From: Castellaniella sp.
GTDB lineage: Bacteria; Pseudomonadota; Gammaproteobacteria; Burkholderiales; Burkholderiaceae_B
Direction: 5' to 3'
DNA length: 64,000 bases
Assembly: GCF_034675905.1 (NCBI RefSeq)
Contig: NZ_JAUCCV010000007.1
Location: 86,677-150,676 of the forward strand
Shown: one piece after another, positions 683-51,423 of the stretch
How the letters are laid out: each line of letters starts with the position of its first letter
How positions within the stretch are numbered: position 1 is the first letter of the stretch
The notes under the pieces: generated by a model
Told to the model about the DNA's origin: nothing
The model's database searches: none
The model's input: only the letters and a program-made list of their open reading frames with translations
Program-made: the position numbers and the translations under genes

Positions 683-748
683 GATGAGAGCAAGCTCCTG
701 TTCAAGCCCTGGGCGGATGCGCCTGCAGGGCCGAGGAAATCGATGGGG

Positions 749-1586: not shown

Positions 1587-2624
1587 CGGATATTTCTGGT
1601 CGGCCTTGATGGCGAACTGGTTGGTCCAGATGCGGGAGATATCGATCTTGGTGCGATCGAAATTCGGCACGAATTCAGCCAAGGCATTCAAAGCCGTCTG
1701 CGGGCCGTCTTCGGGCACCAGACCATCGGGTGACAAGGCTTCCCGGTTGCCTTTCAGGGCCAGCTTGTAGAGTTCAGGATCCCCCAGCAGGTAGGATTCC
1801 GGCACCAGCTTGGCAATGTCATCAGGCGTGGCTGCCTGAATCCATTTGTCGGCCCGCACCATGGCATTGGCCAAAGCCTGAGTGGTGTTGGGATTGGCAT
1901 CGATGAAGGCCTGCGAGGTGTACAGGCAGCCGGACGGCATGTTGCCGCCGAAAATCTGCCGGGCGTCTTTCAGCGTGCGCGTATCGGCTACGACCTGGAG
2001 CGCGTCTTCTTTCACCAGGGTGCTGATGACGGGATCCAGGTTGGCGATGGCATCGATCTGCCCGGTGCGCAGCGCCGTCACCGCCCCTGCGCCGGCGCCC
2101 ACACCGATATAGGCGACGTCGGTCGGCTTGAGCCCATGCTGCGCCAGAAAGAAGCTGGCCATCATATTGGTCGAGGACCCCGGCGCCGTCACGCCGATTT
2201 TCTTGCCTTTCAGATCGGCGGGCGATTTGTAATCGGGCATGGTCTTTTTGGAGACCCCCAGCACGATCATCGGCGCTCTGCCCTGCAGAACGAAGCAACG
2301 GTAGAACTGACCCTTGGACTGCAGATTGATGGTGTGCTCAAAGGCGCCGGACACGACGTCCGCGCTGCCGCCGACCACCGCCTGCAGCGCCTTGGACCCG
2401 CCGGCGAAATCGGCGATCGTGGCGTCCAGGCCTTCTTCCTTGAAGTAGCCCTTCAGGTGCGCGACTGACAGCGGCAGGTAATAGATCAGGGGCTGGCCGC
2501 CCACCGCGATGGTCAATGATGATTTTTCCAAGGCGGCCGCCTGCGCACGCGCCAGGCCGGGTATGGCACCCAGCAAACCTGCCGCACCAGCGGTTTTCAG
2601 CAATTCACGACGAGAAATCGACAT
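1578..2624 (-). CDS. ABC transporter substrate-binding protein, NMT1/SsuA-like, with Tat-type signal
   Basis: N-terminal SRRELLK...ARA signal; KGKKIGVTAPGSST motif; first gene of the transporter operon. Confidence 0.88.
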   Translation of the reverse strand: MSISRRELLKTAGAAGLLGAIPGLARAQAAALEKSSLTIAVGGQPLIYYLPLSVAHLKGYFKEEGLDATIADFAGGSKALQAVVGGSADVVSGAFEHTINLQSKGQFYRCFVLQGRAPMIVLGVSKKTMPDYKSPADLKGKKIGVTAPGSSTNMMASFFLAQHGLKPTDVAYIGVGAGAGAVTALRTGQIDAIANLDPVISTLVKEDALQVVADTRTLKDARQIFGGNMPSGCLYTSQAFIDANPNTTQALANAMVRADKWIQAATPDDIAKLVPESYLLGDPELYKLALKGNREALSPDGLVPEDGPQTALNALAEFVPNFDRTKIDISRIWTNQFAIKADQKYPHG

Positions 2625-2739
2625 GGTCCTGTCTCCGTTATTTGTATTGACGCTGAGTCAGCATGATAACGCGGATAAGACCGGATACAGAGACGGCGGC
2701 ACACCGCAATGCAATCTGCAGCCTGAGGCAGGCCGCCGC

Positions 2740-3342
2740 TTAGCGGCGCTCCATCAAGGCCCAGGCAATCGTGCCGGCATCGACGTATTCCAATTCGCCG
2801 CCGCTGGGCACGCCTCGGGCCAGCCGTGTCACCGTCAAGCCTCGGTCGCGCAGCATATCCGACAGGTAATACGCCGTGGTTTCCCCTTCGGCGGTGAAAT
2901 TGGTCGCCAGGATGACTTCGCGCACCTGTCCGTCGGTGGCGCGCGCCAGCAGGCGGGCGAACTGCACCTGGTCCGGGCCGACGCCTTCCAGCGGCGCCAG
3001 CCGCCCCATCAGGACGTAATACAGGCCCTGGTAGCCATGGCTGGCCTCGATCATGTTCTGATCGGCAGGCGTTTCGACCACGCACAGCAGCGAGGCGTCA
3101 CGATCTGCATTCTGGCAGGTGACGCACAAGGGGGTCTGCGTAAAGGAATTGCAACGTTCGCAATGACACAGGCCGTTCACTGCATCACATAAGGCCCCGC
3201 CCAGCTTCAGTGCCCCGTCGGGGTCATTCTGCAGCAGGTGGTAGGCCATGCGCCGCGCCGTACGCACACCCACGCCCGGCAAGCCGCGCAGCGCATCGAT
3301 CAATGCCTGCAGGGGTTCGGGCTCGGGCAGACCCGCTGCCAT
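2740..3342 (-). CDS. recR: recombination mediator RecR
   Basis: [18 protein letters not shown]4 zinc finger CERCNSF...CVTC, Toprim CVVE and [11 protein letters not shown]. Confidence 0.97.
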
Positions 3343-3343
3343 C

Positions 3344-3670
3344 TCAGAACGGCAGTTTCATGCCGGCCGGCAGGGACATGCCCGCCGTGACCGCCGACAT
3401 CTTTTCCTGGGCGGTGGCTTCGGCCCTGCGCTGGGCATCATTGAAGGCGGCCGCCACCAGATCTTCGATCATGTCGCGATCATCGTCGAACAGCGAGGGA
3501 TCAATGACCACGCGCTTGACGTCGTACTTGCAGCTCATGGTGACTTTCACCAGGCCGCCGCCCGCCGCGCCTTCCACGATCAATTCGGCCAGAGCGTCCT
3601 GGGCCTTTTTCATGTTTTCCTGCATTTGCTGGGCCTGACGCATCAAACCGGCAATCTGACCTTTCATCAT
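3344..3670 (-). CDS. ybaB: YbaB/EbfC nucleoid-associated protein
   Basis: [24 protein letters not shown]...[10 protein letters not shown]...[11 protein letters not shown]; sits between dnaX and recR. Confidence 0.95.
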
Positions 3671-3713
3671 GGCGATGTCCTGATTGGGTAAAGAGGGGAA
3701 AAGAAAACAGGGA

Positions 3714-5639
3714 CTATACCGCAGGCGGACGAACCGACCCGGGGACGACCCGGGCGGCAAACTGCCCGACCAGCGTCTGCACCAGATCATCGCTGTCCGC
3801 CGCCTGTTCGGCAGCCTGCTGACGTTGGGCGCGGGTGGCCTGATCCACTGCAGCGGCCGTATCGTCACCCGTATCGCCGTACTCGATATCCAGACGCAGC
3901 ACCCGGCCGAAGTATTCCGACAACACCGTACGCAAGCGATCATGGGCGCCGCCTTCGATCAGAGTATGGATCGCCACCCGCAGGCGCACCCGATGCTCGT
4001 CGCCGCTCAGCCATTCACTATTCAGGGCCAAGGCCCGAGCCGCGCCTGTGACAGGCAGATCCGCCGCCAATGCGGGCCAATCCGACGCCGCCAGACGGTC
4101 GGGATCGGGGATGGAGACGGCGTCAGGCGCGACAGCAGCGCCTGGCAGATCCGCCAGCCGCACGGGCAGGTCTTCGTCCTCTAGCACCAGAGCATCATCT
4201 GCCGGCGCCCCGTCGAAATCATCGGGTACATCCGCCGTCCAGTCCTGGCTGGCAGACGCTGCGTCGTCCGCATCCAAAGGGATGTCCGTATCGGCGGCAT
4301 GCGTGTCGGGCGCTGCCGGTGGCGGGACCGGTGCACCAGCCTGTACCGCCACTGGCGCAGACGGTTCCACTGGCGCGGCATCCGGCGGCGGCGCTGGAGA
4401 GTCCGGTGTGATGGCCTCCCAGGCCGGCGGTTCATCGGCCGGGGGCGCAACGACGACGGCCTGCGCGCGGGGAGCCGCCTGGGCATCGGTGCGGACCGGT
4501 TCAATCACCGGTTCAGGTGCTGAGACAGGCGGATCCAGGCGCACCGGAGGGACGCGATCCGGCGGCAGCAGCGCCAGCATGCGCAAGCAGGCCATGACAA
4601 ACCCGGCGTACTCGTCCGGCGCCAGCGCCAGTTCCTGGCGGCTATGGACGGCGACGGCATAGAACAATTGCAGATCGTCCGGCCCCAAGCTGGCCGCCAA
4701 GGCCTGGACATCATCGGCCAGGGGGTCGTCCGCCTGGGCATGCCCCAGGCGCTGGGCGATGGCCACCCGCGACAGCAGCACGGCCAGATCCGCCAGCGCG
4801 GCCTGGAACGACAGGCCGCGAGAGGCCAATTCATCCGCCACGGCCAGCACGCCCGCTGCATCGACCGCCGCCAAAGCCCGCAGCAACGCCACCAGGTGAT
4901 GCTGATCCAGCGTCCCCAGCATCTCGCCGACAGCCGCAGCCGTCAGATTGCCCGCCGCATAGGAAATGGCCTGATCCGTCAGGGACAGGGCATCGCGCAT
5001 GGAACCCGCCGCCGCCTGGGCGATCAGGCGCAGGCCCTGGGCTTCAGCCGGGATGGATTCCTGGACCAGGATATGCTGCAGATGTTCGACGATGGCCGGC
5101 ACGGTCATCTGCTTGAGATTGAACTGCAGGCAGCGCGACAGCACCGTGACCGGGATCTTTTGCGGATCGGTGGTCGCCAGGATGAACTTGACGTGTTCCG
5201 GGGGTTCTTCCAGGGTCTTCAGCATGGCGTTGAAGGCATGCCCCGTCAGCATGTGGACTTCGTCGATCATGTAGACCTTGTAGCGGCCGGACGACGGGGC
5301 ATACACCGCCTGTTCCAGCAGCTGGGTCATTTCGTCCACGCCCCGGTTCGAGGCCGCATCGAGTTCAATGTAATCGACGTAACGCCCGGCATCGATTTCC
5401 GTGCAGGCCTGGCAATGGCCGCAAGGGGTGGCCGTAATGCCATCGGCGCAATTCAGGGATTTCGCCAGGATGCGCGACAAGGTGGTCTTGCCCACCCCCC
5501 GGGTACCGGTGAACAGCCAGGCATGATGCAGGCGGCCGGATGACAGGGCATTGCTGAGCGCCCGGACCACGTGGTCCTGACCGATCAAGGTGTCGAAGGA
5601 ACGGGGGCGCCATTTGCGCGCCAGAACGAGATAGCTCAT
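3714..5639 (-). CDS. dnaX: DNA polymerase III subunit gamma/tau
   Basis: [45 protein letters not shown]; Pro/Ala-rich linker. Confidence 0.97.
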
Positions 5640-5673
5640 GAGTCGGCCGCCGCCCGGAAGAGACAAAAGGAAA

Positions 5674-5768
5674 GGCGAGCCTGACTTCGGCACTGGTTCT
5701 GCACGGCTGTGGCTGCTTCGTTCCCGACCTGACCAGGTTCACCGCCGAACCATGCGAAGGGGCCCGCC
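5674..5768 (-). ncRNA. ffs: signal recognition particle 4.5S RNA
   Basis: Minus strand GGCGGGCCCC...CCTGGTCAGGTCGGGAACGAAGCAGCC...GGCTCGCC: conserved SRP domain IV, paired ends, directly upstream of dnaX as is typical. Confidence 0.93.
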
Positions 5769-5787
5769 TTGTGAATTCTAACAGACC

Positions 5788-6975
5788 TCAGGCGCTTCGC
5801 GCCTGCAAGGCTGCCACGGCAGGCAGCGTCTTGCCTTCCAGGAATTCCAGGAAGGCTCCGCCACCGGTGGAAATGTAGCCGATGCGGTCCGCAATGCCAT
5901 ATTTGGCGATGGCCGCCAGCGTATCGCCGCCGCCTGCAATAGAAAAGCCATCCGATTCGGCGATCGCCTGGGACACGACCTGCGTGCCGTGGGCAAAGGC
6001 ATCGAATTCGAACACGCCGACCGGGCCATTCCAGACGATCGTGCCGGCCTGACGCAGTTGCTGCGCCAGCTGCGCCGCCGTCTGCGGGCCGATATCCAGG
6101 ATCAGATCGTCGGGCGCCACGTCGGCAGCGGCCTTGACGGTGGCGGGCGCATCCGCAGCGAACGTCTTTGCCACCACCACGTCCACCGGAATCGGCACCT
6201 GCACGCCCCGCGCCTGCATGGATTTCATGACGGCAGCGGCCTGATCCGCCTGATCGGGTTCAGCCAGGGACTTGCCGATGGGCAGGCCGGCGGCCAACAT
6301 GAAGGTATTGGCGATACCGCCGCCCACGATCAGTTGATCGACTTTGTCGGCCAAGGCCTGCAGGATGGACAGTTTGGTAGAGACTTTCGATCCGCCCACA
6401 ATCGCCACCATCGGGCGGCGCGGCGCTTCCAGGGCACGGCCCAGGGCGTCCAGCTCGGCGGCCAGCAAGGGGCCGGCGCACGCCACCGGGGCGAAACGCG
6501 CCATGCCTTCGGTCGTAGCCTCGGCGCGGTGCGCCGTGCCAAAGGCGTCGTTGACGTATACGTCGCACAAGGCCGCCATGCGGCGGGCCAGATCCGGGTC
6601 GTTTTTCTTTTCGCCGGGATTGCAGCGACAGTTTTCCAGCAGCACGACTTCGCCCGCCGCCAGATCGACGCCGTCCACCCAGTCGCGCACCAGCCGCACC
6701 GGGCGGCCCAGCAATTCAGCCAGACGGTCCGCCACCGGCTGCAAGGTATCGTCTGGGCCGACGACGCCTTCTTTGGGACGCCCCAGGTGAGACGTCACCA
6801 TGACGGACGCCCCGGCATCCAGCGCCAGGCGGATGGCCGGCGCCGAAGCCCGCACGCGGGTGTCTTCGGTGATTTTCCCCTGATCCAGGGGCACATTCAG
6901 ATCGGAACGGATGAACACGCGCTTGCCCGCCAGGGCGCCAGCCTGCGCCAGGCCGGAAAGAGTCTGTATCGACAT
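5788..6975 (-). CDS. pgk: phosphoglycerate kinase
   Basis: [46 protein letters not shown]. Confidence 0.98.
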
Positions 6976-7051
6976 GGAGATGCCTTGTGCAATGCGGGAC
7001 CCCTTTGCGCGGCCTTCAAGCCCGGTGCAGCAGAAACCCCTGAAACGAATG

Positions 7052-7073
7052 AAAAGGGCGGGTCGCCCCGCCC
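7052..7073 (-). terminator. hairpin plus U-tract between gap and pgk
   Basis: GGGCGGG-tcgc-CCCGCCC (7056-7073); A4 at 7052-7055 gives a short U-tract on the minus strand. Confidence 0.5.
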
Positions 7074-7136
7074 TGCCGTTCCATCCGGGTCAGCCTGAAC
7101 ACGCTGTCGGACGGAACACACCTGGAACCACCGGGT

Positions 7137-8147
7137 TTACTTGGCCGCCATCAGCGCCACGGTGGTATCGAGCATGCGGTTCGAGAACCCCCACTCGTTG
7201 TCATACCAGGACGAGACCTTAACCAGCGAGCCGGAGACCTTGGTCAATGCCGCATCCACAGTGCTGGACAGCGGGCTGTGATTGAAGTCGACCGACACCA
7301 GCGGTTCGGTGGTGTAGGCCAGAATGCCCTTCAGGGGGCCTTCGGCAGCGGCCTTGAGGATGCCGTTGACTTCGTCCACCGTGGTGGCACGGGCGGACAC
7401 GAAGGACAGATCGACGATGGACACATTGATCGTCGGGACGCGGATCGAATAGCCATCGAGCTTGCCGTTCAGTTCGGGCAGCACCAGGCCGACCGCAGAC
7501 GCCGCACCGGTCTTGGTGGGAATCATGCTGTGCGTGGCCGAACGCGCGCGGCGCAGATCGGAGTGATAGACGTCGGTCAGGACCTGGTCATTGGTATAGG
7601 CATGCACCGTGGTCATCAGACCGTTGAGCACACCCAGTTGCTGATGCAGGGGGTACACCAGCGGCGCCAGGCAGTTGGTGGTGCACGAGGCGTTGGAGAT
7701 CACCGTGTCAGATGCCTTCAGCACCTGGTGATTGACGCCGTACACGATGGTCGCGTCCACGTCCTTGCCGCCGGGGGCGGAGATGATGACCTTTTTCGCG
7801 CCGCCCTTCAGGTGGGCGGATGCTTTTTCCTTGCTGGTGAAAAAGCCCGTGCATTCCAGCACCACGTCTACGCCCAGTTCACCCCAGGGCAGCTTGGCGG
7901 GGTCGCGGTCGGCCAGCACACGGATACGATCGCCATTGATCACCATGAAATCGCCATCGACCTCGACCGTGCCGGGGAAACGGCCATGCGCCGTGTCATA
8001 GCGGGTCAGGTGGGCATTGGTGTCGGGGTTGCCCAGGTCATTGACGGCGACGATCTGGATATCGTGTTTTTTCCCGTCTTCGTAGTGGGCACGCAGAATA
8101 TTGCGGCCAATACGACCGTAACCATTGATTGCAACACGGATGGTCAT
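7137..8147 (-). CDS. gap: type I glyceraldehyde-3-phosphate dehydrogenase
   Basis: INGYGRIGR, catalytic [19 protein letters not shown]. Confidence 0.98.
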
Positions 8148-8159
8148 GAAGGATCTCCT

Positions 8160-10205
8160 TTACAAAAGCTGCTCGACCGTGGCCGCCACATGATCGGCCG
8201 TGAGGTTGAAATGTTTGAACAACACACCGGCCGGAGCCGATTCCCCAAAAGTGTCGATGCCGACAACAGACCCGGTCGTACCGACGTATTTGTACCAAGT
8301 GGCCGTCCCGCCCGCCTCGACGGCGACGCGCGGCAGGCCGGCGGGCAACACAGCGCCGCGCCAATCCGCATCCTGCGCATCGAACACCTGCGTGCAGGGC
8401 ATGGACACCACCCGGGTGGCGATGCCGCGGGCGGCCAGGCTGTCCTGGGCCTGCAAGGCCAGTTCGACCTCGGACCCGGTGGCGATGATGACGGCGCAAG
8501 CGCCCACCATGTCACGCAACACATAACCGCCGCGCGCAATCGCATCCGTGGTGGCCGCATCGCGAGCGACAAAGGGCAGATTCTGGCGCGACAACAGCAG
8601 CGCCGACGGCCCGCCGTCATGCACGGCCATGCCGATGCTGGCCGGACGCGCCAGCGCAGCCTGCCAGGCCACGGCGGTTTCCGTCGTATCGCAAGGCCGC
8701 CAGACATGCAGATTGGGGATCAGGCGCAGACTGCCGGCATGTTCGACGGACTGGTGCGTAGGACCGTCTTCGCCCAGACCGATGGAGTCGTGCGTGAACA
8801 CGTGCACCACGCGCTGTTTCATCAGTGCAGCCATGCGCAAGGCATTGCGCGAATAGTCGGAGAACGTCAGGAAGGTGCCGCCAAACGGCAGGTAGCCGCC
8901 GTGCAGCGCCATGCCGTTCATGACGGCCGCCATGCCGAATTCGCGCACACCATAATTGATGTGACGCCCGCCCTGCAGGCCGTTGGCGCTGGGGCGCACC
9001 GGTGTGACGCCCTTCCAGTCGGTGAAGTTCGACCCGGTCAGGTCGGCCGAGCCGCCCAACAGTTCAGGCAGGATGTCGGCAAAAGCGGCAATGGCCTGCT
9101 GCGATGCCTTGCGCGAAGCGATGGATTCAGCCTTGTCCTGTGTGGATTGCACATAGGCGCGCGCGCGTTCGGTGAAATCGACCGGCAATTCACCGGCCAT
9201 GCGGCGGCACAATTGCGCGGCCAGTTCCGGGTAGGTCTCGGCATAGTGATCGAAGCGCACCTGCCAATCGGATTGCTGCTGGGCGCCGCGTTCACGGCCA
9301 TTCCAGTAAGCGTAGACTTCGCGCGGAATATCAAAAGGCGGGTGATTCCAGCCCATGGCTTTGCGGGCGGCGGCGATTTCATCGGCGCCCAACGGCGCGC
9401 CGTGGACTTTTTCGCTGCCGGCCTTGGTGGGCGCGCCGCGCCCGATCACCGTGCGGCAGCAGATCAGGGTAGGACCGCGCCCGGCGGCGGCATGGGCGCG
9501 CGCCTGGACGATGGCCGCATCCAGAGCATTCATGTCATGGCCATCGACGCCGCGCAGCACGTTCCAGCCGTAGGCCTCGAAACGGGCCGGGGTGTCGTCG
9601 GCGAACCAGTTCTGTACCTGGCCGTCGATGGAAATGCCGTTGTCGTCGTAGAACACGATCAGGCGCGACAGGCCCAGCGTGCCCGCCAGCGAGCAGGCTT
9701 CGTGCGAGATGCCTTCCATCAGGCACCCGTCGCCCGCAAACACATAGGTGTCGTGGTCGATGATGTCGTGGCCGGGGCGATTGAATTCCTGCGCCAGCAG
9801 CGCCTGGGCCAAGGCCATGCCGACCCCGTTGGCCAAGCCCTGGCCCAGCGGCCCGGTCGTGGTTTCCACCCCCGGCGTGATGCCGACTTCGGGGTGACCC
9901 GGCGTGCGCGAATGCAGCTGGCGGAAATTGCGCAATTCGTCGATGGGCAGGTCGTAGCCGCTGAGATGCAGCAGCGCATAGAGCAGCATCGAGCCATGCC
10001 CATTGGACAGCACAAAGCGGTCGCGATCGATCCAGGCCGGATCGGACGGGTTGTGGCGCAGGTGGCGCGTCCACAGCACATGGGCGATATCGGCCATGCC
10101 CATGGGGGCCCCGGGGTGTCCGGAATTGGCTTGTTGGACGGCGTCCATGGCCAGCACGCGGATCGCGTTGGCCATGGCAGGGTCGGGGGCGGGCAAAGCG
10201 CTCAT
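8160..10205 (-). CDS. tkt: transketolase
   Basis: [31 protein letters not shown] motif, [15 protein letters not shown]. Confidence 0.98.
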
Positions 10206-11082: not shown

Positions 11083-11544
11083 TCAGTTGTCTTCGCGCCC
11101 AGAATACGGGGTCGGATCCACACCGGGTTCGGGGGCCGGATGCGCCCCGGCATGCTGGATGGCATAGGCGAACAGGCGTTCGTTGTTCTGGCCGTATTCC
11201 ACCACGTCGTTGCACACGGCGCCGATGGCCTGGGCATCATCGGCCAAGGCCGGGTCGCCGGAGTGCAGATGACGGAACCACAGGAACAAGCCGGTCTTCT
11301 GGTCACCCAGCGTATCGCACAGGCAATCGTACAAAGCATCCAGATTGCCGCCGAAGAACTCGGGATAATCGATGGCCTTGACCACCGCCCGCAACACAGC
11401 GGAACGGCTACGCGCCCGGTCGCAGTCCACCACAAAAGCCGCCAGGCCAGCCTCGGCGGCGGCCGTCAGCGCATCCTGTTCGGACACGGCCTGGGCGTCT
11501 ACGACACCCTGGGCGAACATTTTGCTTATCTGGGCCAGACTCAT
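11083..11544 (-). CDS. barstar family protein
   Basis: IDYPEFFGGNLDALYDCLCD barstar motif; ATG overlaps the patatin stop (ATGA at 11541-11544). Confidence 0.85.
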   Translation of the reverse strand: MSLAQISKMFAQGVVDAQAVSEQDALTAAAEAGLAAFVVDCDRARSRSAVLRAVVKAIDYPEFFGGNLDALYDCLCDTLGDQKTGLFLWFRHLHSGDPALADDAQAIGAVCNDVVEYGQNNERLFAYAIQHAGAHPAPEPGVDPTPYSGREDN

Positions 11545-12755
11545 GCGGGCCACTCCTTGAAAAAAGCGATGATTTCATCAGCACGATTCATGCTGTCTGC
11601 CCTGCCCAATGCGATCAGGTCCTTGGTATAGCCTGCTTCGAACAATAAATAGGATGCCAGCGCCCCGCCTGCCGCCTCGGGTTTGCGCGGCGACACCCCC
11701 AACACCCTGAACAAGGTCTGCACGGCGCGCGGCAATTCGTGCAGGTGTTCCAGCGCCATTTCGTCCAGAGAGCGACTGGGAGCGATCATCAGGGTATGGA
11801 TGGGCCGCAATGACTCGCTTTTTAATCCATTTGCAGGGATTCGCGCAAGCAGCCCATTGATTCGCTCCATGCGCTCCATGTCGACCGAAATGCCGTCCAG
11901 GAAAATATTGGACAAGGTATGGCCGGCAATCTGCGCCAGACTGGGGTATGCGGGGCTGAGTTCGCGGATGCCAGGCTGTGTTTCGTCCTGGTAGTTGGTG
12001 CTGATGACGAAGACCCGTTCGGCGCCCAGGTGAATGGCCGGGCTGATGGGCGCCAGCTGGCGCATCGAACCATCGCCACACCACAGGGTCCGGTCGCCCA
12101 CCAGGATCGCCCGCGCAGGAAACACGAAAGGAATGGCGCTGGACGCCAGCAGATGATCCACCCCGATGGAACAGGACACAGCCCGGCGCAGGGTGCGCGT
12201 CCAGGGCAGGATGCTGCCTTCGCCCGCCTGATAGAACGTCAGGTGTTCGCCAGTCGTATACGCGGCGGCGGTGATGGCCAGGGCTTTCAGGTGCCCGCGA
12301 TCCAGATTGGTCCGCAGCCGGGGAAAGCTGAGCGTCCTGCTCAGCAGGCCTGACAGCGGCTCGTTGTCCAGCAGGGAATGCGGCGCGTAGCGGGACAGCT
12401 GCGGGCGAATCCATCCCAGGGTGAGCATGCCCAGCCACTGCAGGCCGGTGCGCACCAGGCGGGGGGCGTCTGAATAATAAACGTCGCGCGTATGCAAGGA
12501 CTGCCACAGCGCGCACAGATGATCGATGGCTCGGTGCGGCTGATGAGCGCGACACGCCAGGGCGGCGGCATTGATGGCCCCGGCCGAGGTGCCGCAGACG
12601 ATGTCGAAAGGATTACGGAACCCAGGGGCGCCATCCGGATCCAGCACCTGCAGGATGCCGGCCAGCACACCTGCCTGGTAGGCGGCGCGGGCGCCGCCCC
12701 CAGTCAGGACCAGACCGATCTGAGGCCGATCAGGATCGCCGTGGCTTATTGGCAT
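11541..12755 (-). CDS. patatin-like phospholipase
   Basis: GGGARAAY oxyanion motif, GTSAG nucleophile, DGS motif (CGDGSMRQ). Confidence 0.9.
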   Translation of the reverse strand: MPISHGDPDRPQIGLVLTGGGARAAYQAGVLAGILQVLDPDGAPGFRNPFDIVCGTSAGAINAAALACRAHQPHRAIDHLCALWQSLHTRDVYYSDAPRLVRTGLQWLGMLTLGWIRPQLSRYAPHSLLDNEPLSGLLSRTLSFPRLRTNLDRGHLKALAITAAAYTTGEHLTFYQAGEGSILPWTRTLRRAVSCSIGVDHLLASSAIPFVFPARAILVGDRTLWCGDGSMRQLAPISPAIHLGAERVFVISTNYQDETQPGIRELSPAYPSLAQIAGHTLSNIFLDGISVDMERMERINGLLARIPANGLKSESLRPIHTLMIAPSRSLDEMALEHLHELPRAVQTLFRVLGVSPRKPEAAGGALASYLLFEAGYTKDLIALGRADSMNRADEIIAFFKEWPA

Positions 12756-15024
12756 CGACCACCGTCAAGGCCGCCATATTGACGATCCGGCGCACCGTCG
12801 AGCTGGATGTCAGGATGTGGACCGGCGCATTGGCGCCCAGCAGGAACGGCCCGACCGCCACATTGCCGCCAGCGGCGGTCTTGAGCAGGTTGTAGGCGAT
12901 ATTGCCGGCATCCACGCTGGGGCAGATCAGCAGATTGGCTTCACCCTTCAAGGTGGTCGACGGCAGGATGCGCTGCCGCAAGGCCGGATCCAGCGCGCAA
13001 TCGCCGTGCATTTCACCGTCGATTTCCAGGCCAGGGTCGCGTTCGCGCACCAGATCCAGCGCCGCACGCATCTTTTCGCCGGAAGACGAACTGCCCGTCC
13101 CGAAGTTCGAACGCGACAGCAAGGCGACTTTGGGTTCGATGTTCAGGCGGCGCATTTCTTCGGCGGCCATCAGGGTGATGTCCGCAATCTGCGTGGCATC
13201 CGGATTGTCGTTGACGTGCGTATCGGCCAGCGCGATGGTGCGCTCATCCAACAGCAGGATGTTCATGGCCGCATAGGTCTGCGCTCCCGGCTGCAAGCCC
13301 AGGACTTCGTCGATGAAGCGTAGATGATTGGCATACGATCCGACCGTGCCGCAGATCATGCCGTCGGCGTCGCCCACACGCACCATCATGGCGCCGATCA
13401 GGGTCAGGCGGCGGCGCATTTCCACCCGCGCCATTTCCTTGGTGATGCCGCGCCGGCACATCATTTCCCAGTACATGGTCCAGTAATGATGGAAGCGTTC
13501 ATCGTGTTCGGGATTGGTAACCTCGACGTCCTCGCCCAGACGGATGCGCAGGCCGTATTTTTCGATACGGGCCGCCAACACCGCCGGCCGGCCGATCAAG
13601 ATCGGTTTGGCCAGGCGTTCGTCGACCACGATCTGCACGGCGCGCAGCACGCGTTCGTCTTCGCCCTCGGCAAAAACGATGCGGGATTTTCCGCCCTCGC
13701 GCACCATGGCGCGCGCCGCCGAGAACAAGGGCTTCATGAAGGCGCCGGAATGGTAGACGAACTGTTCCAGCTGGCCGGCGTAGCTGTCCAGATCGGCCAG
13801 CGGGCGCGTCGCCACGCCATCGTCCATGGCCGCCTTGGCGACGGCGGGGGAAATGCGTACGATCAGGCGCGGATCAAAGGGCTTGGGAATGAAGTAATTG
13901 GCGCCGAAAGACACGTCGTACAGGCCATAGGCGGCCGCCACGACGTCGTTTTGCTCTTCGCGGGCCAGCTTGCAGATCGCCATGACGGCGGCTTTTTCCA
14001 TGCCGCGCGTGATGGTGGTCGCCCCCACGTCCAGCGCACCCCGGAAAATATACGGGAAGCACAAGACATTATTGACCTGGTTGGGGAAATCGGACCGGCC
14101 GGTGGCGATCACGACATCGTCGCGCACCGCCAGGGCGTCGGCCGGCAGGATTTCCGGATTGGGATTGGCCAGCGCCAGCACCAGCGGGCGGGCCGCCATT
14201 TTCTTGACCATCTCGGGCTTGAGCACGCCGCCCGCCGACAAGCCCAGGAACACATCGGCGTCGCCGATGATGTCGCCCAGCGTGCGGGCGTCGGTCTTTT
14301 GCGCAAAACGGGCCTTTTTGGGATCCATCAAGACCGTGCGGCCTTCGTAGACCACGCCCTCGATGTCGGACACCCAGATGTGTTCCAGCGGCAGGCCCAT
14401 GTCCATCATGAGTTCCAGGCAGCCCAGAGCAGCCGCCCCGGCGCCGGACACCACGACCTTGACCTTGGCGATGTCCTTGCCGACGACTTCCAGGCCGTTG
14501 ATGAATGCCGCCGTCACGCAGATGGCCGTGCCGTGCTGGTCATCATGGAAGACCGGAATCTTCATGCGTTCGCGCAGTTTGCGCTCGACCTCGAAACATT
14601 CAGGCGCCTTGATGTCTTCCAGGTTGATGCCGCCGAATGTGGGTTCCAGCCCGGCGATGATATCCACCAGCTTGTCGGGGTCCTGTTCGTTGATCTCGAT
14701 GTCGAAAACATCCAGGCCGGAGAATTTTTTGAACAGCACGGCCTTGCCTTCCATGACGGGCTTGGAGGCCAGCGCCCCGATATTGCCCAGGCCCAGCACC
14801 GCCGTCCCGTTGGTGATCACCCCCACCAGGTTGCCGCGCGCGGTGTAGCGAAAAGCATTATGGGCATCGTCGACGATGGCCTCGCAGGCCGCCGCTACCC
14901 CGGGGGAATAGGCCAGCGCCAGATCCCGCTGGTTGGACAGCTGCTTGGTGGGTGTCACCGAGATTTTGCCGGGACGGCCATGTTCGTGATATTCGAGCGC
15001 CGCCGCGCGCAGGGATTCGTCCAT
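12730..15024 (-). CDS. maeB: NADP-dependent malic enzyme with PTA-like C-terminal domain
   Basis: [36 protein letters not shown]-terminal [14 protein letters not shown] and EIDGEMHGD. Confidence 0.96.
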
Positions 15025-43480: not shown

Positions 43481-46385
43481 TCAAGCGTGCGGCGCTCTGG
43501 CGTCGCGCAAACGCTGCTCGAAGCTGTCCTGATCCAGCGGCTCGCCCAGCCAGAATCCCTGCCCGGCGTCGCAACCCATATCGCGCAATAGCTTGTACTG
43601 CGCCTGGCTGGCGATGCCTTCGGCAATGACCCGCATGCCCAGGCGATGCGCCAGGGCCACGACGGATTCGCAGACCAGCCGGGCGGCTTCGTTATCGGAT
43701 ACCTGTTCCGTGACTTCGCGTTCCAGCTTCAGCGTCTCGAACAGCAGATCGCGGGAGGCCAGCAACGCGGGCATGCCGACAGATACCGCCCCCACGCTGA
43801 AACGCATGCCCAGATGATGCAGATAATGCAAGCGATCCCGCATCAGAGGGCCCAGATTCATCAGCAGATGTTCATTGAATTCCAGGGACAGGCAGTCCGG
43901 CGGCAGCCCCTGGGCGTCCAACAGACCGAGCACGGCTTCCAGGCCGGCTTGGGCCAGGCTGAACTGGCCGGGCGATACATTCACGGTCAGACGCAGATCG
44001 GGCGCCATGTCCTGGCGCCACACCCCCAATTGCTGGATGGCTTCACGGAACACCCAATCGCCCAGCGGCTGCATGAGCTGGCGCTCTTCGGCAAACGGAA
44101 TGAAATCCATAGGGGCGATGACACCAAAGGCAGGGTGACGCCACCGCAGCAAGGCCTCGGCCTTGATGATTTGCCCGGTCCGGAAGGAATAGATCGGCTG
44201 ATACAGCAGGAAGAACTGGCCCGCCTCGATGGCCTCGGGCAGCGCCACCAGCAGGTCATGCTGCATGCTGGCCCGGTCTCGCATGGACTGGTCGAAATAC
44301 TGATAGCCATTGCGGCCGGCTGCCTTGGCTTGATACATGGCCATATCGACATGGCGCATCAGCATTTCAGCATTGTCCGCATCAGCCGGATACAAGGCGA
44401 CCCCCAGGCTGGCGGATATCTGGATCATATTGCCTGCCAGCGAATAGGGCTCGGTGATGCCATCCAGCAAGCGCCGGCACAAGGCATCCAGCTGCAGCTT
44501 GTCCAGCCGCGGTCCGTCTGATTTTTCAGCCACCAGGATGACGAACTCATCCCCGCCCAGGCGGGCGATGAAGTGAAGATCATCCGTGCAACTGCGCAGA
44601 CGCTTGGCGACCTCGCTCAGCAGATGATCGCCCATCTCATGCCCCATGGAATCATTGACCTCTTTGAACAGGTCCAGATCCAGAAACAACAGGGCTATGG
44701 ATTGCGTCTGGCGGTCGGCCTCGTCCACCGATACTTTCAGGTGCTCGTTGAAATACTGGCGGTTGGGCAAGCCAGTCAGGGGATCATGGTGCGCCTGATT
44801 CCAGATGGCTGTCTCTACCTGTTTTTTCTGTGTCACATCGCTGAGCATCACCACCCGGCAATTGACCGAGCCATCGTGATTCCAGGCGGTATCCAGCACC
44901 ACGCGCTGGGCATATTCCTCGCCGGATTTGCGCTGCAGCCAGTATTCGCCTTCCCAGCGGCCTTTGGTATTGATGGCATGCCACATCTGGTCGTAGAAAT
45001 CCCGGTTATGGCGACCTGGCCGCAGCAGCACCAGCAATTCACCGGCGACTTCATCGGGCCAATAACCCGTCATGCGGGAATAGGCAGGATTGACGTCGAT
45101 GATGACGCCGGTGGCGTCGGTAATGGCGATGGCCTCGCTGCTGTTTTCATAAGCAATCGCAGCCAACTGGGCGGAGGATTCCGCCTGCTTGCTTTCAGTA
45201 ATGTCCTGCACCAGCCCGATGAGGGCGGCGTCATCGCCTGTCCCCACCAGCGTGATAAAGATCTCGATGTCGAACAATGAGCCGTCTTTGCGACGGCCAT
45301 GACGCTCGAACCGCAGTGTCGAAATCTTCTGATTGCGGCCGGATTTCAAGGCCTCGTCAACCAGATAGCGTTCCCGGGGGGCAATGATGGACAACAGCGT
45401 CAGGTGTCCGATCATCTCGTCAGGCATATAGCCGAAAATATCAGCCATTTTTTGGCTGACGAAACTGAAACGGTCACGGGCGATCAGGAAAATCCCCACC
45501 AAGGCATTGGACGCCAAGCCCTGAAAGATAATTTCAGACCGCTGCAACCCTTCCTGGTCTTCGCGCATCTGGGTCAGCAGTTCGTGAATCTGCTGCGCGC
45601 CCGCATTGTAGGCGTGGGCGATTTCAGTGATCTCGCCCACGCCCGCAGGCGCCACCCGAGTCGTGTAATCGCCCTGCAAGAGATCCCGAGCAGCGAGATT
45701 CAAGGTTCGCAGCGGCAGCAAGACGCCACGGCGCACCAACAGAAACACCCCCACCAATAGACCGAGATCCAGCAAAATCAGAGCAATCAACCAGTTCAGC
45801 GCCTGGCTCTTGGCGCCGTGCAAGATGGGCATCAACGCGTCCGACGCCGCATTGAGCGTACCCAGCAAAGTACCGGCATCGTCCGCGATCCACTGGCGCT
45901 GCACCGCATGCGGCAAATCCCGCTTTTCAGCCGCGGCATCCCCCCAGGAATAGGAGTCCAGCATGACCGCCTGCAGGCGCCCGCGCAACACCACCCAATC
46001 GCGCTGTATCTTGGGCAGCAGCAGACGAACCGGCGCCTGTCGCAATGCGGAAATCTCGCGGTCCCCTACGACCCCCCCCCTGATCCAGGGCCCGCAGGGC
46101 CAGATCCATGGCATCGATTTCCTTGCTGATCTGCCCGGTCTGCAGCAAGCCGCCATCGGCCAGCCGCATCGCCCGCACCGCCAGTTGCTGACTGAGCGTG
46201 CGCATGCTGCCCAGCGTCGCCGACTGATCCAGCGCGGCGTCATAGCGCGACATGAGCGAATACACCAAAGCCGCATTGCCCAGCACAAAGGCCAGCATCA
46301 CACCATAAAAGACAGCCGATATTGACCTGAGCCCGAACAAGATGCGGGCGGCAGGCCCTGCTGGTTTCGAAAATCGTGGGCGCAT
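43481..46385 (-). pseudogene. membrane sensor-HAMP-PAS-PAS-GGDEF-EAL protein, frameshifted at a G9 tract
   Basis: N-terminal part in ORF 45927-46385 (TM plus NarX/PilJ-like), remainder in ORF 43481-46288. Frames switch at the C9 run 46072-46080 (G9 on the coding strand); G8 gives LDQGGVVGDREIS. GGDEF intact; EAL present but DDFGTG replaced by GAVSVG. Confidence 0.85.
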
Positions 46386-46610: not shown

Positions 46611-46731
46611 GGAATTTTGGAATGTGGTTTGGAAGTTTGGAAGGAAATTCGAGGCGAAAAAAAGCACCTACATGATGTAGATGCTTGATTTCACTGAATT
46701 ATTTGGCGGAGCGCAGCGTTTCAATTCCAAA
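46611..46731. other. att-like junction: arm-like repeats around a tRNA 3'-end remnant
   Basis: TTTGGAA x3 (46616-46642); TGGCGGAG at 46704-46711 reads CTCCGCCA on the minus strand (tRNA-Ser-like 3' end); inverted TTCCAAA at 46725-46731. Marks the switch from host to phage genes. Confidence 0.6.
46657..46686 (-). terminator. intrinsic terminator downstream of the tRNA 3'-end remnant
   Basis: Minus strand AAGCATCTAC-atcat-GTAGGTGCTT-TTTTT, with one G-U pair consistent with this orientation. Confidence 0.65.
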
Positions 46732-46744
46732 AAAATGATGTAAA

Positions 46745-46800
46745 TTAGCGGTAGCTAATTAGCGTTGGCTATTGACTTAACCTTAGTCATGGCTAATAAT
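46745..46800 (+). promoter_or_regulatory. O_L/P_L-like operator-promoter
   Basis: TTAG-N6-CTAA at 46745-46758 and 46783-46796, one-mismatch copy at 46759-46772; TTGACT (46772-46777) with AATAAT (46795-46800). Confidence 0.8.
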
Positions 46801-46833: not shown

Positions 46834-47043
46834 ATGACCATCGCCACCACCTCTACAGCCGCCGATCTGTTCGTGTCGTCTGTTGCCCGTATTCAAGATC
46901 AACTGGCCCGCCTGCGGGCCGCTGCCGACAACCACTTCGATGCCGATCCCTCCCGGATCAACTGGGGGCACGTTGGCGACCTCGGTCGCATCGAGGCCGC
47001 CCTGAAAAACGCCTGTGCTGTCGCCTTTAACGAGGCCGAGTGA
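46834..47043 (+). CDS. small phage hypothetical protein (DNHFDADPSRINWGHVGDL)
   Basis: 69 aa, RBS GAGAGG, first gene after P_L. Confidence 0.75.
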   Translation: MTIATTSTAADLFVSSVARIQDQLARLRAAADNHFDADPSRINWGHVGDLGRIEAALKNACAVAFNEAE

Positions 47044-47134: not shown

Positions 47135-48113
47135 ATGACCATTATCGGCATCGCTCTTGGCAAGCACTACGACAAGAAGTGGAAGCGCATCGACGAAGAC
47201 GGCAGCGTCCTGTCGCCCGCACAGCACTATTTCGACGATCACCCGATCTTTTCTCGGCCTGGCCGATGAGGAAATCAACGGCCAGGCCATGGTTCGTGTC
47301 CCGGCGTTCTACTACCGTAATGGCGTCATCACGGATGGCGACCTGGCGGGCAAGAAGGCGTTATGGATCAGCCCGACCCCAGCCGACGGCTTTACGCGTC
47401 ACCCCGCCTTCATGCACCACGGTGCGCCTATCGATCAGTTCTGGATCGGCAAGTACCAGGCGACGGCTGACGGCCCCCTTATGGGTTCCTGCGCTGGTGC
47501 GATGCCGCTGGCTAGCATAGATTTTCCGACGATGAAAGACCGCGCTGCCCAGCGCGGCGATGACTGGATGCTCTGGAGCGTCTATCAGCTCGCTGCGGTT
47601 CAGATCCTCGCCTTGATCGAACATGGCACGCCCGATCTGGCCTCTGTTGTTGGTGCTGGATACGTGGATGGCGACGGCGTTCGGCCGGTTGATGATGAGC
47701 TGGTCGCCCAGGCTGCGTATCGCGGCATCACCGGCCTGTGGGGCAACGTGTGGCAGATGCTCCAGGGCCTGGGGACGAACGGCGAGCGCGAATGGCGGAT
47801 CTGGGATATGGCAGGCCGTCAAGAGCTGATCGATACCGGCATCGCCGCGCCCGAGAACAACTGGTTTCACCGACGGCAGCGCAAGGCTGGCGCGGATTTC
47901 GACCTGGGTGCTGTTTTCCTGCCCAAGAAGACGCGCGATGCGCAGGGAGATTCCGGCTTCGGTGATTACATCTGGGCCTGGTCAGATGGCGAGGTCGCGT
48001 ACCACGGCGGTCTTTGGTACGGCGGTGCGCTCGACGGGCTGTTCTGCTTGGTCGTCATCAACGCCGCGTCGCACTCCAATGCGTACATCGGCGGCCGCCT
48101 CGCAAAGGTGTGA
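47135..48113 (+). CDS. C-type-lectin/FGE-fold protein with a DGR-type variable region; frameshift at T4 47249-47252
   Basis: RBS AGGAG and MTIIGIALGKHYDKKWKRIDEDG...HPIF join LGLADEEINGQAMVRVPAFYY if one T is removed. FWIGKYQA, GLWGNVWQM; C-terminus GGLWYGGALDGLFCLVVINAASHSNAYIGGRLAKV. Confidence 0.75.
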
Positions 48114-48145
48114 TGGGTCACGTCTTAAGTGTCATGCAAACGGGC

Positions 48146-48167
48146 GAGCCCGCCGAGCGGGCCGCTC
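48146..48167 (+). other. GC-rich hairpin downstream of the VR-like end (DGR homing cruciform candidate)
   Basis: GCCCGC-cga-GCGGGC (48148-48162), about 35 bp after the stop codon. Confidence 0.5.
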
Positions 48168-48184: not shown

Positions 48185-48319
48185 ATGTCTGCTACCCCCA
48201 TCATTCCCGGCCGCCTGTACCGCGTTCGTGGTCAGGGTTTCGACGTCACAGTGATTGCCACCGATGCTGCGGCCGCAATCATCATCATGCTTCCGAGGGT
48301 CATGCCATGCGAAGCCTAA
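48185..48319 (+). CDS. 44-aa phage hypothetical protein
   Basis: MSATPIIPGRLYRVRGQGFDVTVIATDAAAAIIIMLPRVMPCEA; RBS GGAG; below the ORF-track cutoff. Confidence 0.6.
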   Translation: MSATPIIPGRLYRVRGQGFDVTVIATDAAAAIIIMLPRVMPCEA

Positions 48320-48927: not shown

Positions 48928-49338
48928 ATGAAAAAGAAGCGCCGCATACCCCGCACGATACGCATCCCGGTCACTCGCGCCCTGCGAGATGAGTTCGCAA
49001 TGCTGCTGTACACGTCGCTCTGGAGCCTTGAGCACGCCCCAGGAGCCGATCCGTTTGACAACCTAGCGGGCGTTTTCAACGTGGTGCAGCTTGCGCTCGA
49101 GCACGACGCCGCGCACCGCCATGAGGCGCGTCTTATCACTGGCGGTGCCGCTGCCCTGAATCAGGCGATGAACCGGATCATTTCCGGCAAGCCGCCCGCC
49201 GATCACGAAATCGCGCCCATTCGCGTGAGCGTGGAAACCATAGACAGGCTGCTGGGCCGTTTGGACGTGTCAGTCCTATACGCCGCCATGCAGCGCCTGC
49301 GCGATCTACGCGCAGCACCCGAAAAAAGAGAGTTGTGA
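48928..49338 (+). CDS. phage hypothetical protein
   Basis: MKKKRRIPRTIRIPVT..., helical, in the same operon. Confidence 0.7.
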   Translation: MKKKRRIPRTIRIPVTRALRDEFAMLLYTSLWSLEHAPGADPFDNLAGVFNVVQLALEHDAAHRHEARLITGGAAALNQAMNRIISGKPPADHEIAPIRVSVETIDRLLGRLDVSVLYAAMQRLRDLRAAPEKREL

Positions 49339-49628
49339 CTATAAAGGAGAAACCTATGTCACTAGAGGATTTGATCGATACAGATTCCCGGCCTGCCAGC
49401 AGGCTGCATGCAACCATGGAGTCCCGCCGCCGACTGGAATTGTGCAGCGAGCAGATGGCTGAAGGCGCCCGCCTTGTCATCGATGTTCTGGATGAACTCA
49501 TTGCAGAGCATGGAGACCTGCCGATTAGCGATACCCTGGCTGATCGGCTGATAGAGCGCATCGGGCTGCTCGACCGCGCCCAGGCGGCTTTATCGGACGC
49601 AATGCAGGGGAGGCATCGCCATGCTTGA
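49335..49628 (+). CDS. phage hypothetical protein
   Basis: 97 aa, overlaps both neighbours. Confidence 0.6.
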   Translation: MTIKEKPMSLEDLIDTDSRPASRLHATMESRRRLELCSEQMAEGARLVIDVLDELIAEHGDLPISDTLADRLIERIGLLDRAQAALSDAMQGRHRHA

Positions 49629-49854
49629 AACTGGCATTCTGCTGACCCGTGCACAGCTTGAGGAGCTAACGGGCATGAAACAGCCTGCGCGGATGGTGGC
49701 ATGGCTCGAGCAGCGGCATTGGGTGTACGAACCCGCCGCGCGTCGAGGCGGAATCCCCAGGGTATCGCGGCAGCATTTCGAGGCCCGTATGTCGGGCAAG
49801 TCGAACGCGCGGCGCCGTAACGGGCCACGGCTCGACTTCTTCGCAGCACAATGA
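49621..49854 (+). CDS. excisionase-like protein (DUF4224 type)
   Basis: LTRAQLEELTGMKQPARMVAWL...GGIPRVSR; ATGA-coupled to the integrase. Confidence 0.8.
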   Translation: MLETGILLTRAQLEELTGMKQPARMVAWLEQRHWVYEPAARRGGIPRVSRQHFEARMSGKSNARRRNGPRLDFFAAQ

Positions 49855-50957
49855 GCCGACAGCGCACCCGTCAGGATGGCCTGCCTTATCGTGTCTACGA
49901 GCGCAGGGGCACTATTACCTATTCAATCGGGTACAAGCTCCCTGATGGCCGGTGGGCGTTTCGCCTGAAGTGCCCCGTCAAGGATCGCGCCAAGATGGCA
50001 GAGATCCGTGCCGAGGCGATTCGTCGGGCAGGCGAGATCGGCTTGGGTCGACCGGCTGACGATTCCGTTGATGCGTTGATTACGGTGTGGCTGGAGTGGC
50101 AGGAATCTCTACCGCTTAACAGCCCGAAACGACGCGCTGACTCGACGCTGGCCGAGAACAAGCGCGAGATCGTCCGGCTGCGTAAGGCGTTCGGCCACAT
50201 GGCGGTGCGCGACCTCACGAAGACGGACGCCTACGCCTACCTGGATGCGTGCGTTAAGGCGAGCCGCGCCGCCAAGGGGAACAAGGAAATATCGCTGATG
50301 CGCCGCATTTTGGAATATGGCGTGCGCCTAGGCCTGCTAACAGTCAACTCGTTTGACGGTGTCGAGAAGAACGAAACCGCCGAGTATGACCGCCTGGTGA
50401 CCGATGAAGAAATTGCCCTGGCCGAACGCGTGGGCCGGAAGATGGGCGGCCCGCAGTTGATCGTGGCGCTGGCACTGAAAACAGCCTGGCTGTGCCTGAA
50501 ACGTTCCGTGGAGGTGCGAGCGTTGACACACCCACAAATCACCGATGCTGGCATTGAGTGGGTGGCGGCCAAACGGCGGCGGGGTGCCATTCCAAGGGTC
50601 GGGATTATCGAGTGGAGTCCAGAGCTGCGAGCGACGATTGATGATGCCCTGGCGATCAAGCGTTATGACCTCGCGGGCGACTGGTATGTGTTTGGAAATT
50701 TGCGCGGCGAGCGGTACACAAAAGGTGGCTGGAAGAGCACGCTATCGCGGCTCATGAACGAATGCGTGGAGGTGGCCACCAAGGAAAGCATCCCGTTTAA
50801 GCCATTCAGCCTGCAGGACTGCCGCCCTAAGGGTGTGTCAGACAAACTCCAGCGTGGGGACAAAGACGTCATGGAAGCGACGCTGCACACGTCGGAGCGG
50901 ATGATCCGCAAAACCTACGACAGGCGCCGTGTGCGCCATGCGAAGCCCGCAGAGTAG
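49851..50957 (+). CDS. int: tyrosine recombinase / phage integrase
   Basis: LCLKRSVEVR (catalytic R), LQDCRPKG (HxxR variant), LHTSERMIRKTYDRRR (catalytic Tyr); intact 368 aa. Confidence 0.9.
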   Translation: MSRQRTRQDGLPYRVYERRGTITYSIGYKLPDGRWAFRLKCPVKDRAKMAEIRAEAIRRAGEIGLGRPADDSVDALITVWLEWQESLPLNSPKRRADSTLAENKREIVRLRKAFGHMAVRDLTKTDAYAYLDACVKASRAAKGNKEISLMRRILEYGVRLGLLTVNSFDGVEKNETAEYDRLVTDEEIALAERVGRKMGGPQLIVALALKTAWLCLKRSVEVRALTHPQITDAGIEWVAAKRRRGAIPRVGIIEWSPELRATIDDALAIKRYDLAGDWYVFGNLRGERYTKGGWKSTLSRLMNECVEVATKESIPFKPFSLQDCRPKGVSDKLQRGDKDVMEATLHTSERMIRKTYDRRRVRHAKPAE

Positions 50958-50961
50958 GGAA

Positions 50962-51345
50962 TTATCCGTCGTGGCCCATGCCCACAATAAAGCCCGATAC
51001 GACTCTGTCGAGGGCTTTTTTCTCGGCTGTCGATAGCTTGCTGTACGACTCATAGGACGTCGAGAAAGGCCAGCCGTTCGCGCGGTTCTGGATGTGTGGC
51101 TGGTGGTTGTCCACCTCTCCCTCTTTCAGGTACTTCGGCCCTTCACCTGTCGCAATCCACCATGTGTGGACGCGAAAGAAGGCCGCTGCGCGGATGGCGT
51201 TTGAGGCCTCCATCTGCTTGGTCTTTCCGGACAGCCAGCCGTTCACGGACGGTTGCTTCACGCCGCAGGCGCGGGCGAGATCGACGGGCCTGGCCTCGGG
51301 GCGCTCGGCAAAGAGTTCAGAGAATCGTTCTGTAAGTGTGGACAT
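50962..51345 (-). CDS. CI-like XRE HTH repressor without an S24 peptidase domain
   Basis: VDLARACGVKQPSVNGWLSGKTK HTH; divergent from cro; 127 aa. Confidence 0.85.
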   Translation of the reverse strand: MSTLTERFSELFAERPEARPVDLARACGVKQPSVNGWLSGKTKQMEASNAIRAAAFFRVHTWWIATGEGPKYLKEGEVDNHQPHIQNRANGWPFSTSYESYSKLSTAEKKALDRVVSGFIVGMGHDG

Positions 51346-51346
51346 A

Positions 51347-51423
51347 TTAGCTAATCCTAAATGTTTTTCACATAGGTGTGGCTTGCTTTTTATCCTTAGG
51401 TATGGCTAAATATGCACTGCTAA
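51347..51423. promoter_or_regulatory. O_R/P_R operator-promoter region
   Basis: TTAG-N6-CTAA at 51347-51360 and 51396-51409; CCTTAG-nn-ATGGCTAA is shared (14/16) with 46781-46796. Confidence 0.8.

Follow-up and report, generated by a model that had tools for sequence, protein, structure and literature searches.

A short C-type lectin gene at the attL end of a Castellaniella prophage is probably the disabled target of a diversity-generating retroelement that related prophages carry at their opposite end

The 64,000-nucleotide stretch of Castellaniella sp. DNA considered here (contig NZ_JAUCCV010000007.1 of assembly GCF_034675905.1, positions 86,677 to 150,676; hereafter the window) contains, close to the left boundary of a prophage, a frameshift-split gene for a small protein with a predicted C-type lectin (CLec) fold, the C-terminus of which had been proposed in an initial annotation to be the variable region (VR) of a diversity-generating retroelement (DGR). 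Judging from comparison with related prophages, this open reading frame (ORF) is a genuine DGR variable-protein gene, and we consider it probable, at about 70%, that it has become a broken, donor-less fossil, while the system survives intact in sister prophages. The copy in the window is most likely dead, and its seemingly orphan VR can be explained from the far end of a homologous prophage, where the template repeat (TR), the reverse transcriptase (RT) and bAvd are encoded.

This assignment is carried above all by the relatives. A family-wide genome search recovered the target protein in three further genomes (G142, G042 and G051), and a DGR RT is present in 3/3 of them. In Castellaniella denitrificans CCUG 39541 (G142), the orthologue (P0003, C4:102307-103281) lies at the attL end of a prophage integrated at a tRNA-Asp, and about 39 kb to its right, on the + strand, follow in order an 860-aa tail fiber with a VR, two ORFs, bAvd (PF22296, 3.6e-23), a TR repeat of about 105 nt, and the RT (RVT_1, 2.7e-20); avd, TR and RT together occupy C4:143335-145105. 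The tail-fiber VR of this prophage differs from the TR at 7 positions and the short-gene VR at 8, all of them at TR adenines (7/7 and 8/8, respectively), and in the second prophage of the same strain (contigs C7 and C12) the 19 differences within the repeat that separate the short-gene VR from the TR again all fall at adenines (19/19). The same holds for every difference between short-gene VR and TR in a Castellaniella sp. metagenome-assembled genome (MAG), a 42.6-kb contig of which carries the short target at one end and the fiber VR, TR and RT at the opposite end. In G051, which belongs to the same family, 11 differences lie at adenines and 1 elsewhere; here, the genome contains no copy of the repeat beyond the TR and the short-gene VR, which makes the short protein the sole DGR target. 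The VRs of the relatives thus differ from their TRs essentially only at adenines. A TR and an RT in homologous prophages had been anticipated by the initial annotation, and both are present in the relatives together with bAvd; moreover, the TR that it had predicted is close to the actual TR of the sister prophage, such that the VR could be recognized, and its template approximated, from the letters of the window alone.

The C-terminus of the target reads GGLWYGGALDGLFCLVVINAASHSNAYIGGRLAKV, reproducing what had initially been given, and the VR within it has its variable codons at 48012, 48018, 48021, 48030, (48033), 48051, 48057, 48060, 48072, 48078, 48081, 48084 and 48087. The codons taken at the outset to be mutated from AAC are indeed hypervariable in the family, with the exception of TGC (48045), which belongs to the scaffold and is unchanged in every related TR and VR. 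Because C-ending codons already make up 43% of the target gene, the probability of finding 10/10 NNC codons by chance is about 2e-4. The family provides far stronger evidence: across 71 homologues, the last 33 residues contain nine positions that reach 3.0-3.5 bits of entropy and alternate with a nearly invariant scaffold, most of the interleaved scaffold positions remaining below 0.9 bits. The variable positions hold residues that can be reached from AAC, with K, E, Q, M and W almost absent. Among 15 homologues of one 90% cluster, which are 93-97% identical overall, residues 1-292 are almost invariant, and the differences occur at about 12 positions in 293-318. Homologue variation is, in line with the original proposal, concentrated at the predicted codons, and its confinement to the VR in near-identical copies amounts to ongoing targeted diversification.

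An AlphaFold2 model of the target, built with the 71 homologues (pLDDT 96, pTM 0.94), was compared by Foldseek with the PDB, where TaqVP (5vf4) was the first match (E 4e-14, TMq 0.63-0.65), followed by matches that include TvpA (2y3c) and Mtd (1yu0), and further by FGE, EgtB and PvdO. TaqVP was also found by sequence search, as the sole sequence-level match in the PDB. The modeled fold is that of an FGE-type CLec protein, in agreement with the CLec fold that had been put forward. A Pfam search of the target protein gave no match, the Mtd domain included, and the best PHROG is phrog_5302, annotated as "tail protein" (E 6e-35), over the C-terminal half of the profile. The short protein is 47-48% identical to the C-terminal approximately 315 residues of the 860-aa and 977-aa tail fibers of the sister prophages, and corresponds to the CLec module alone, with neither shaft nor anchor.

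The 3′ side of the VR carries the elements expected of a DGR target. All VRs compared end in ...GGCGGCCGCCTCGCAAAGGTG, whereas the related TRs end in ...GCAAACGA, a difference that appears to be the distinction between the initiation of mutagenic homology (IMH) and IMH*. The segment at 48090-48103, which had been described as a 14-nt G/C tract, reads GGCGGCCGCCTCGC; it belongs to a GC-rich IMH-like end as proposed, but contains one T, such that the pure G/C run is 10 nt long. The hairpin that had been placed at 48148-48162 is supported by folding and extends beyond these limits on both sides (Table 1); it recurs in 9 related target loci, where compensatory changes affect 4 of its 11 pairs. We also note a GTCATG motif at 48131-48136, between the stop codon of the target and the hairpin, which is invariant in 9/9 target loci, of short and long targets alike.

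The target gene starts with an ATG at 47135, preceded by an AGGAG ribosome-binding site, and its first frame comprises 44 codons up to a TGA at 47267-47269, while the second (+1) frame runs from the shift near 47254 through a TGA at 48111-48113. Both halves align to the C. denitrificans orthologue at 80% identity. DNA alignment with three intact relatives places the lesion at TTTTC[T]CGG in the window versus TTTTC-CGG in the relatives, and tblastn switches frame at the same point; the frameshift had been ascribed to a change in a run of four T, but the extra nucleotide sits just 3′ of this run, the length of which is unaltered. A programmed frameshift was considered and rejected, because every relative carries the gene as a single uninterrupted ORF, encoding a protein of 322-328 aa (about 325 aa). 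The closest relatives are found in Alcaligenaceae, namely in C. denitrificans, Eoetvoesiella caeni (73%) and Bordetella hinzii (61%), and short stand-alone CLec proteins of about 325 aa form a family in temperate phages of Burkholderiales. Among deposited phage genomes (n=50,697, tblastn), no close relative of the target was found, the best matches being partial and 24-38% identical (e.g., Vibrio phage VHML ORF35), and a scan of viral contigs for the target pattern returned nothing.

Table 1. Features of the left prophage end and of the operon that contains the target gene, in coordinates of the window
Feature	Position	Strand	Basis
attL core, 11 nt TTGGCGGAGCG, identical to tRNA-Asp 3′ end; left prophage boundary	46703..46713		tRNA match
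Three operator-like sites TTAG-N5-GCTA, overlapping the operon promoter	46745-57, 46759-71, 46783-95 (46745..46795)	+	motif scan
Sigma-70-like promoter, TTGACT-17-AATAAT, 10/12 consensus positions	46772..46800	+	consensus match only
orf69, first operon gene	46834..47043	+	phrog_14596, E 1e-18; present in C. denitrificans, absent in E. caeni
DGR variable-protein gene, stand-alone CLec fold, frameshift-split here	47135..48113	+	orthologue identity, fold
Frameshift site, 1-nt insertion TTTTC[T]C	47249..47255	+	DNA alignment, 3 intact relatives
VR	48004..48089	+	TR comparison with sister prophage; hypervariable family columns
IMH-like 3′ end of VR, GGCGGCCGCCTCGCAAAGGTG	48090..48110	+	comparison with related TRs
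GC-rich hairpin 3′ of VR, 10 bp, one bulge, 3-nt loop	48143..48166	+	fold
44-aa ORF after target gene, conserved in all three syntenic prophages	48185..48319	+	synteny
Excisionase (xis)	49621-49854	+	DUF4224, excisionase PHROGs
Tyrosine integrase (int), last gene of same-strand operon	49851-50957	+	phrog_1; 93% identical to orthologue, single frame
cI-like repressor gene, convergent with int	50962..51345	-	phrog_4, phrog_2328; intact, 85% identical to orthologue
Two operator-like sites, cI-cro intergenic region	51348..51408		motif scan

The absence of a TR, RT or avd from the window, which had been noted initially, is borne out, and extends to the whole assembly (3.07 Mb in 10 contigs) by BLAST, by searches with PF00078 and with the sister-prophage RT, and by a scan for the VR scaffold. 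BLAST of 47940-48130 against the whole assembly matched only this segment itself, and in the scan of the assembly restricted to scaffold positions the VR itself scored 85/85, with the next best site at 50/85. Short BLAST matches at C5:89097 and C1:126980 were considered as TRs and rejected, as they span only 19-26 nt and the scaffold-only scan was negative. PF00078 (RVT_1) found no match in this assembly while control genomes were positive, and the sister-prophage RT likewise had no match here while being positive in G142, G042 and G051. No homologue of a tail, Avd or RT gene was found on any contig of the assembly. Since the assembly holds no TR, Avd or RT, the VR would be frozen in its last state.

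The location of the missing donor is suggested by the geometry of the prophage. Because all phage genes except cI lie on one strand, the circular order can be written as tail fiber-avd-TR-RT-attP-orf69-short target-...-xis-int. In C. denitrificans, a tRNA-Asp lies about 40 nt after the stop codon of the RT, forming attR; in the genome at hand, an intact tRNA-Asp is found at C10:3404-3480, and the attL core lies just to the right of a host GGDEF-EAL gene, which borders the C. denitrificans prophage as well. Once the genome is circular, only about 0.25 kb separates the RT stop codon from the start of the short target, the VR of which is found about 2.6 kb downstream of the TR; by integrating at the 3′ end of the tRNA-Asp, the phage brings the cassette to attR and the short target to attL, about 40 kb apart. 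In the intact relatives, the cassette lies at the end of the late operon (tail fiber with VR1, two ORFs, bAvd, TR and RT) and, following the established mechanism of DGRs, would make adenine-mutagenized cDNA from the TR, which would replace each VR that has an IMH end and a downstream hairpin, that is, both the tip of the tail fiber and its short paralogue. The initial description of the gene as an orphan is true of the assembly alone, and its diversification in trans is not supported; in the intact relatives, the donor belongs to the same prophage, at its opposite end, and the orphan appearance follows from this geometry combined with an assembly break or truncation. As a separate observation, the host GGDEF-EAL gene (window 45927-46385; contig C7, about 132735-133061) shows a frame change near its N-terminus relative to the C. 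denitrificans orthologue, the single such break among the flanking host genes.

Reading from its promoter, the operon consists of orf69, the VR gene, small ORFs, xis and int. The motif TTAG-N5-GCTA occurs at 5 distinct sites in the 64 kb, all of them at the operon promoter (3) or between cI and cro (2), where 0.14 would be expected by chance, and this operator layout recurs in C. denitrificans and in E. caeni, the latter having its three sites directly before the short gene. The initial annotation had placed the gene in a repressor-controlled early operon under P_L. We first rejected this claim, since the operon starts at attL (46703) and runs toward cI, with int convergent to it, rather than away from the switch as P_L would; we then reversed this decision on the strength of the shared operator motif and of the early-gene context seen elsewhere. 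What stands is that the operon is probably controlled by the phage repressor, and what does not is the identification with a classical P_L. As the operon promoter carries three operator-like sites matching those of the cI-cro switch, the short target is probably kept off in the lysogen and turned on by induction. Two other phage lineages carry the short gene on the strand of a cI-like gene, downstream of it and followed by a YqaJ exonuclease, SSB and a methylase, and wherever we compared its neighborhood, the short gene is always in early-gene company. For the YqaJ-type phage (a 52-kb Logan contig, for which look-ups gave mosaic synteny), we infer the position of the DGR from G051. We note separately that a C5 DNA methylase gene, about 2.1 kb long (667-685 aa) and situated between a 136-aa ORF and xis in the prophages of C. 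denitrificans and E. caeni, is missing from the window prophage at 49335-49630.

Several observations weigh against the conclusion that the gene is a donor-less fossil. The sequence of contig C7 stops at 154619, within the gene for the major capsid protein and 21 kb into the prophage, and contig C10, which follows by synteny, starts inside an AT-rich Mob+Int island beside the tRNA-Asp, which makes the absence of the donor inseparable from the assembly gap: the DGR end of the prophage is either deleted or unassembled. Several contig ends overlap (C2/C3, C2/C5/C6, C6/C8, C1/C9) over 1.2-1.5 kb at 99.7-100% identity, which suggests a metagenome or long-read assembly, such that the prophage frameshifts could be unpolished errors; given this redundancy at contig ends, frame errors in variable regions need care. 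Finally, the VR of the window differs from the TR of C. denitrificans, the nearest known, at 13 TR adenines and at 6 other positions, and its own TR is not seen, although such non-adenine differences are to be expected if that TR has diverged, the prophages being only about 80% identical. The contig break, which falls exactly upstream of the position of the DGR in the relatives, and the overlapping ends would both be explained if the target were live, belonging to a full prophage whose avd-TR-RT at attR was left unassembled or unbinned and whose frameshifts are errors of the consensus, as would the intact state of int, xis, cI and the IMH/hairpin, and the presence of a DGR RT in 3/3 family-level relatives that have the protein. 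We nevertheless regard a live target as unlikely. Frame changes or premature stops relative to C. denitrificans (at the protein level, by tblastn) affect at least 12 prophage genes, including the target, YdaT, primase (two), methylase/ParB, terminase, portal, protease and capsid, whereas the flanking host genes, about 16 kb in total, show 1; frame breaks are thus about 10 times denser in the prophage than in the host flanks of the same contigs, which disfavors uniform sequencing error. A count of indels by DNA alignment was discarded in favor of these tblastn frame changes, as it is dominated by noise at 75-80% identity and gave equal counts for host and prophage. In addition, the insertion in the target gene is not a change of homopolymer length, no contig holds a tail, Avd or RT gene, and targets without a DGR are common: 400 sampled Burkholderiales genomes yielded 6 more with the domain, mostly in long fibers, with an RT present in 2/6 and absent in 4/6. 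We therefore consider the prophage to be likely in decay, with a poor local consensus as the alternative. That the C-terminal pattern has nothing to do with a DGR, and belongs to an ordinary FGE/CLec-type protein whose NNC codons reflect a high GC content at third codon positions, appears highly improbable: the 43% of codons ending in C, the lack of a TR or RT in the assembly and the lack of a Pfam match would all be in line with it, but the four independent cognate TRs of the relatives are set apart from the orthologous VRs almost exclusively by changes at adenines, homologues of 93-97% identity vary within the VR only, and both IMH end and hairpin are conserved.

Whichever state the copy in the window is in, the role of the short protein has to be weighed separately. 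An Mtd-like role in receptor binding would be the default, because of the 47% identity to the tail-fiber tip of the same phage, and we give it about even odds. The two proteins share a TR, the PHROG match is to a "tail protein", and, to our knowledge, all characterized phage DGRs diversify receptor-binding proteins, Mtd of BPP-1 being likewise small and separate. A more tentative possibility is that the short CLec protein is not a tail part but, along the lines suggested initially, an early, repressor-controlled and DGR-diversified binder that acts inside or on the host cell, on variable host or rival-phage molecules (anti-defense, exclusion or host takeover). This would account for its constant placement among early genes, together with an operator-bearing promoter, xis, int and, in the relatives, a DNA methylase, for its position in the two other lineages, where it follows the cI-like gene and precedes the YqaJ exonuclease on the strand of cI, for its restriction to the CLec module that aligns to the last approximately 315 of 860 fiber residues, with no shaft or anchor, and for its being the sole DGR target in G051. 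The identity to the fiber tip and the tail-protein match speak against such a binder, however, as does the fact that the circular genome allows late read-through from the RT into the operon, and, in one relative, head and tail genes follow on the strand that carries the short gene. If the early-binder reading were true, a retroelement would diversify an intracellular effector besides (and, in the G051 lineage, instead of) the receptor-binding tip.

The system of the relatives resembles the DGR of Bordetella phage BPP-1 (mtd-avd-TR-brt), in that a temperate phage carries bAvd, TR and RT, and in that there is a GC-rich IMH end with a downstream hairpin. It differs from it in that mtd directly adjoins avd-TR-brt among the tail genes, whereas the short target of the relatives lies across attP at the head of the xis-int operon, and in that the cassette of the relatives has a second, long tail-fiber target. 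Mtd itself (PDB 1YU0), which was found by Foldseek, is likewise a small protein with a C-terminal CLec fold and a VR on AAC-type codons, but the fold match is weak (TMq 0.36) and the Pfam Mtd domain is absent here. TaqVP of Thermus aquaticus (PDB 5VF4) shares with the target the stand-alone FGE-type CLec architecture and the C-terminal position of the VR, but is larger (about 380 aa) and only 17-18% identical; this match is uninformative on function.

Phage DGRs with two CLec targets, one TR for both, and the DGR between the tail genes and the integrase have been described (Baykov et al. 2023, PMC10743442; bioRxiv 10.1101/2024.10.15.618418), and targets that persist without a DGR have been reported for Toutatisvirus phages (bioRxiv 10.1101/2024.10.15.618418), which is the situation in the genome studied here. 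Those systems belong to phages of gut Bacillota and Bacteroidota, with targets that carry DUF6273, Ig or "tentaclin" domains, whereas here the hosts are Burkholderiales and the second target is a paralogue of the fiber tip in an operator-controlled xis-int operon. Similarly, many phage-associated DGRs pair an adjacent target with a second, non-adjacent one that belongs to the same prophage and is less than 50 kb distant (Wu et al. 2018, PMC5758913), and the geometry of the intact relatives is of this kind; the neighborhood of the distant target across attP and its early-type operon are not noted in that survey. Non-adjacent targets and targets without a DGR are thus already described. The attP-split geometry may, in turn, account for many prophage targets that DGR surveys list as "non-adjacent". 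What second targets do in phage DGRs is considered an open question (PMC10743442), and C. denitrificans CCUG 39541, which is culturable and has two such prophages, is suited to its study. The short proteins analyzed here form an undescribed family of DGR targets that is widespread in Burkholderiales prophages, occurs in nearly identical form in Pseudomonas, and is always found among early genes.

A number of minor observations were made on the relatives and on the prophage surroundings. Five short CLec proteins of the cluster of P0030 (P0114-P0118), from Alcaligenes nematophilus, Pseudomonas nitroreducens, P. aeruginosa, Burkholderia anthina and Pseudothauera nasutitermitis, share 96-97% identity when the VR is left out, a host spread that points either to a very widely distributed prophage module or to mislabeled assemblies. 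The DGR of G051 (C7 11340-14126) has two tandem RVT_1 genes (11340-12404 and 13053-14126) that are about 45% identical to each other, with a 132-aa ORF and the TR between them, and it has no adjacent target, its only VR being on another contig. The island at the start of contig C10 of the present assembly (C10:1-3400), with about 43% GC as compared to 62% for the genome, encodes a Mob/Pre-type relaxase and its own tyrosine integrase, and sits at the expected attR position, as a tandem insertion at the same tRNA-Asp. In E. caeni, an element at 1-9665, immediately to the left of the orthologous prophage, carries a P4-type integrase, AlpA, capsid, protease, portal, HNH, TerS, TerL and head-tail connectors, with no tail genes, and resembles a phage satellite of the capsid-forming, cf-PICI-like type that lies in tandem with the prophage.

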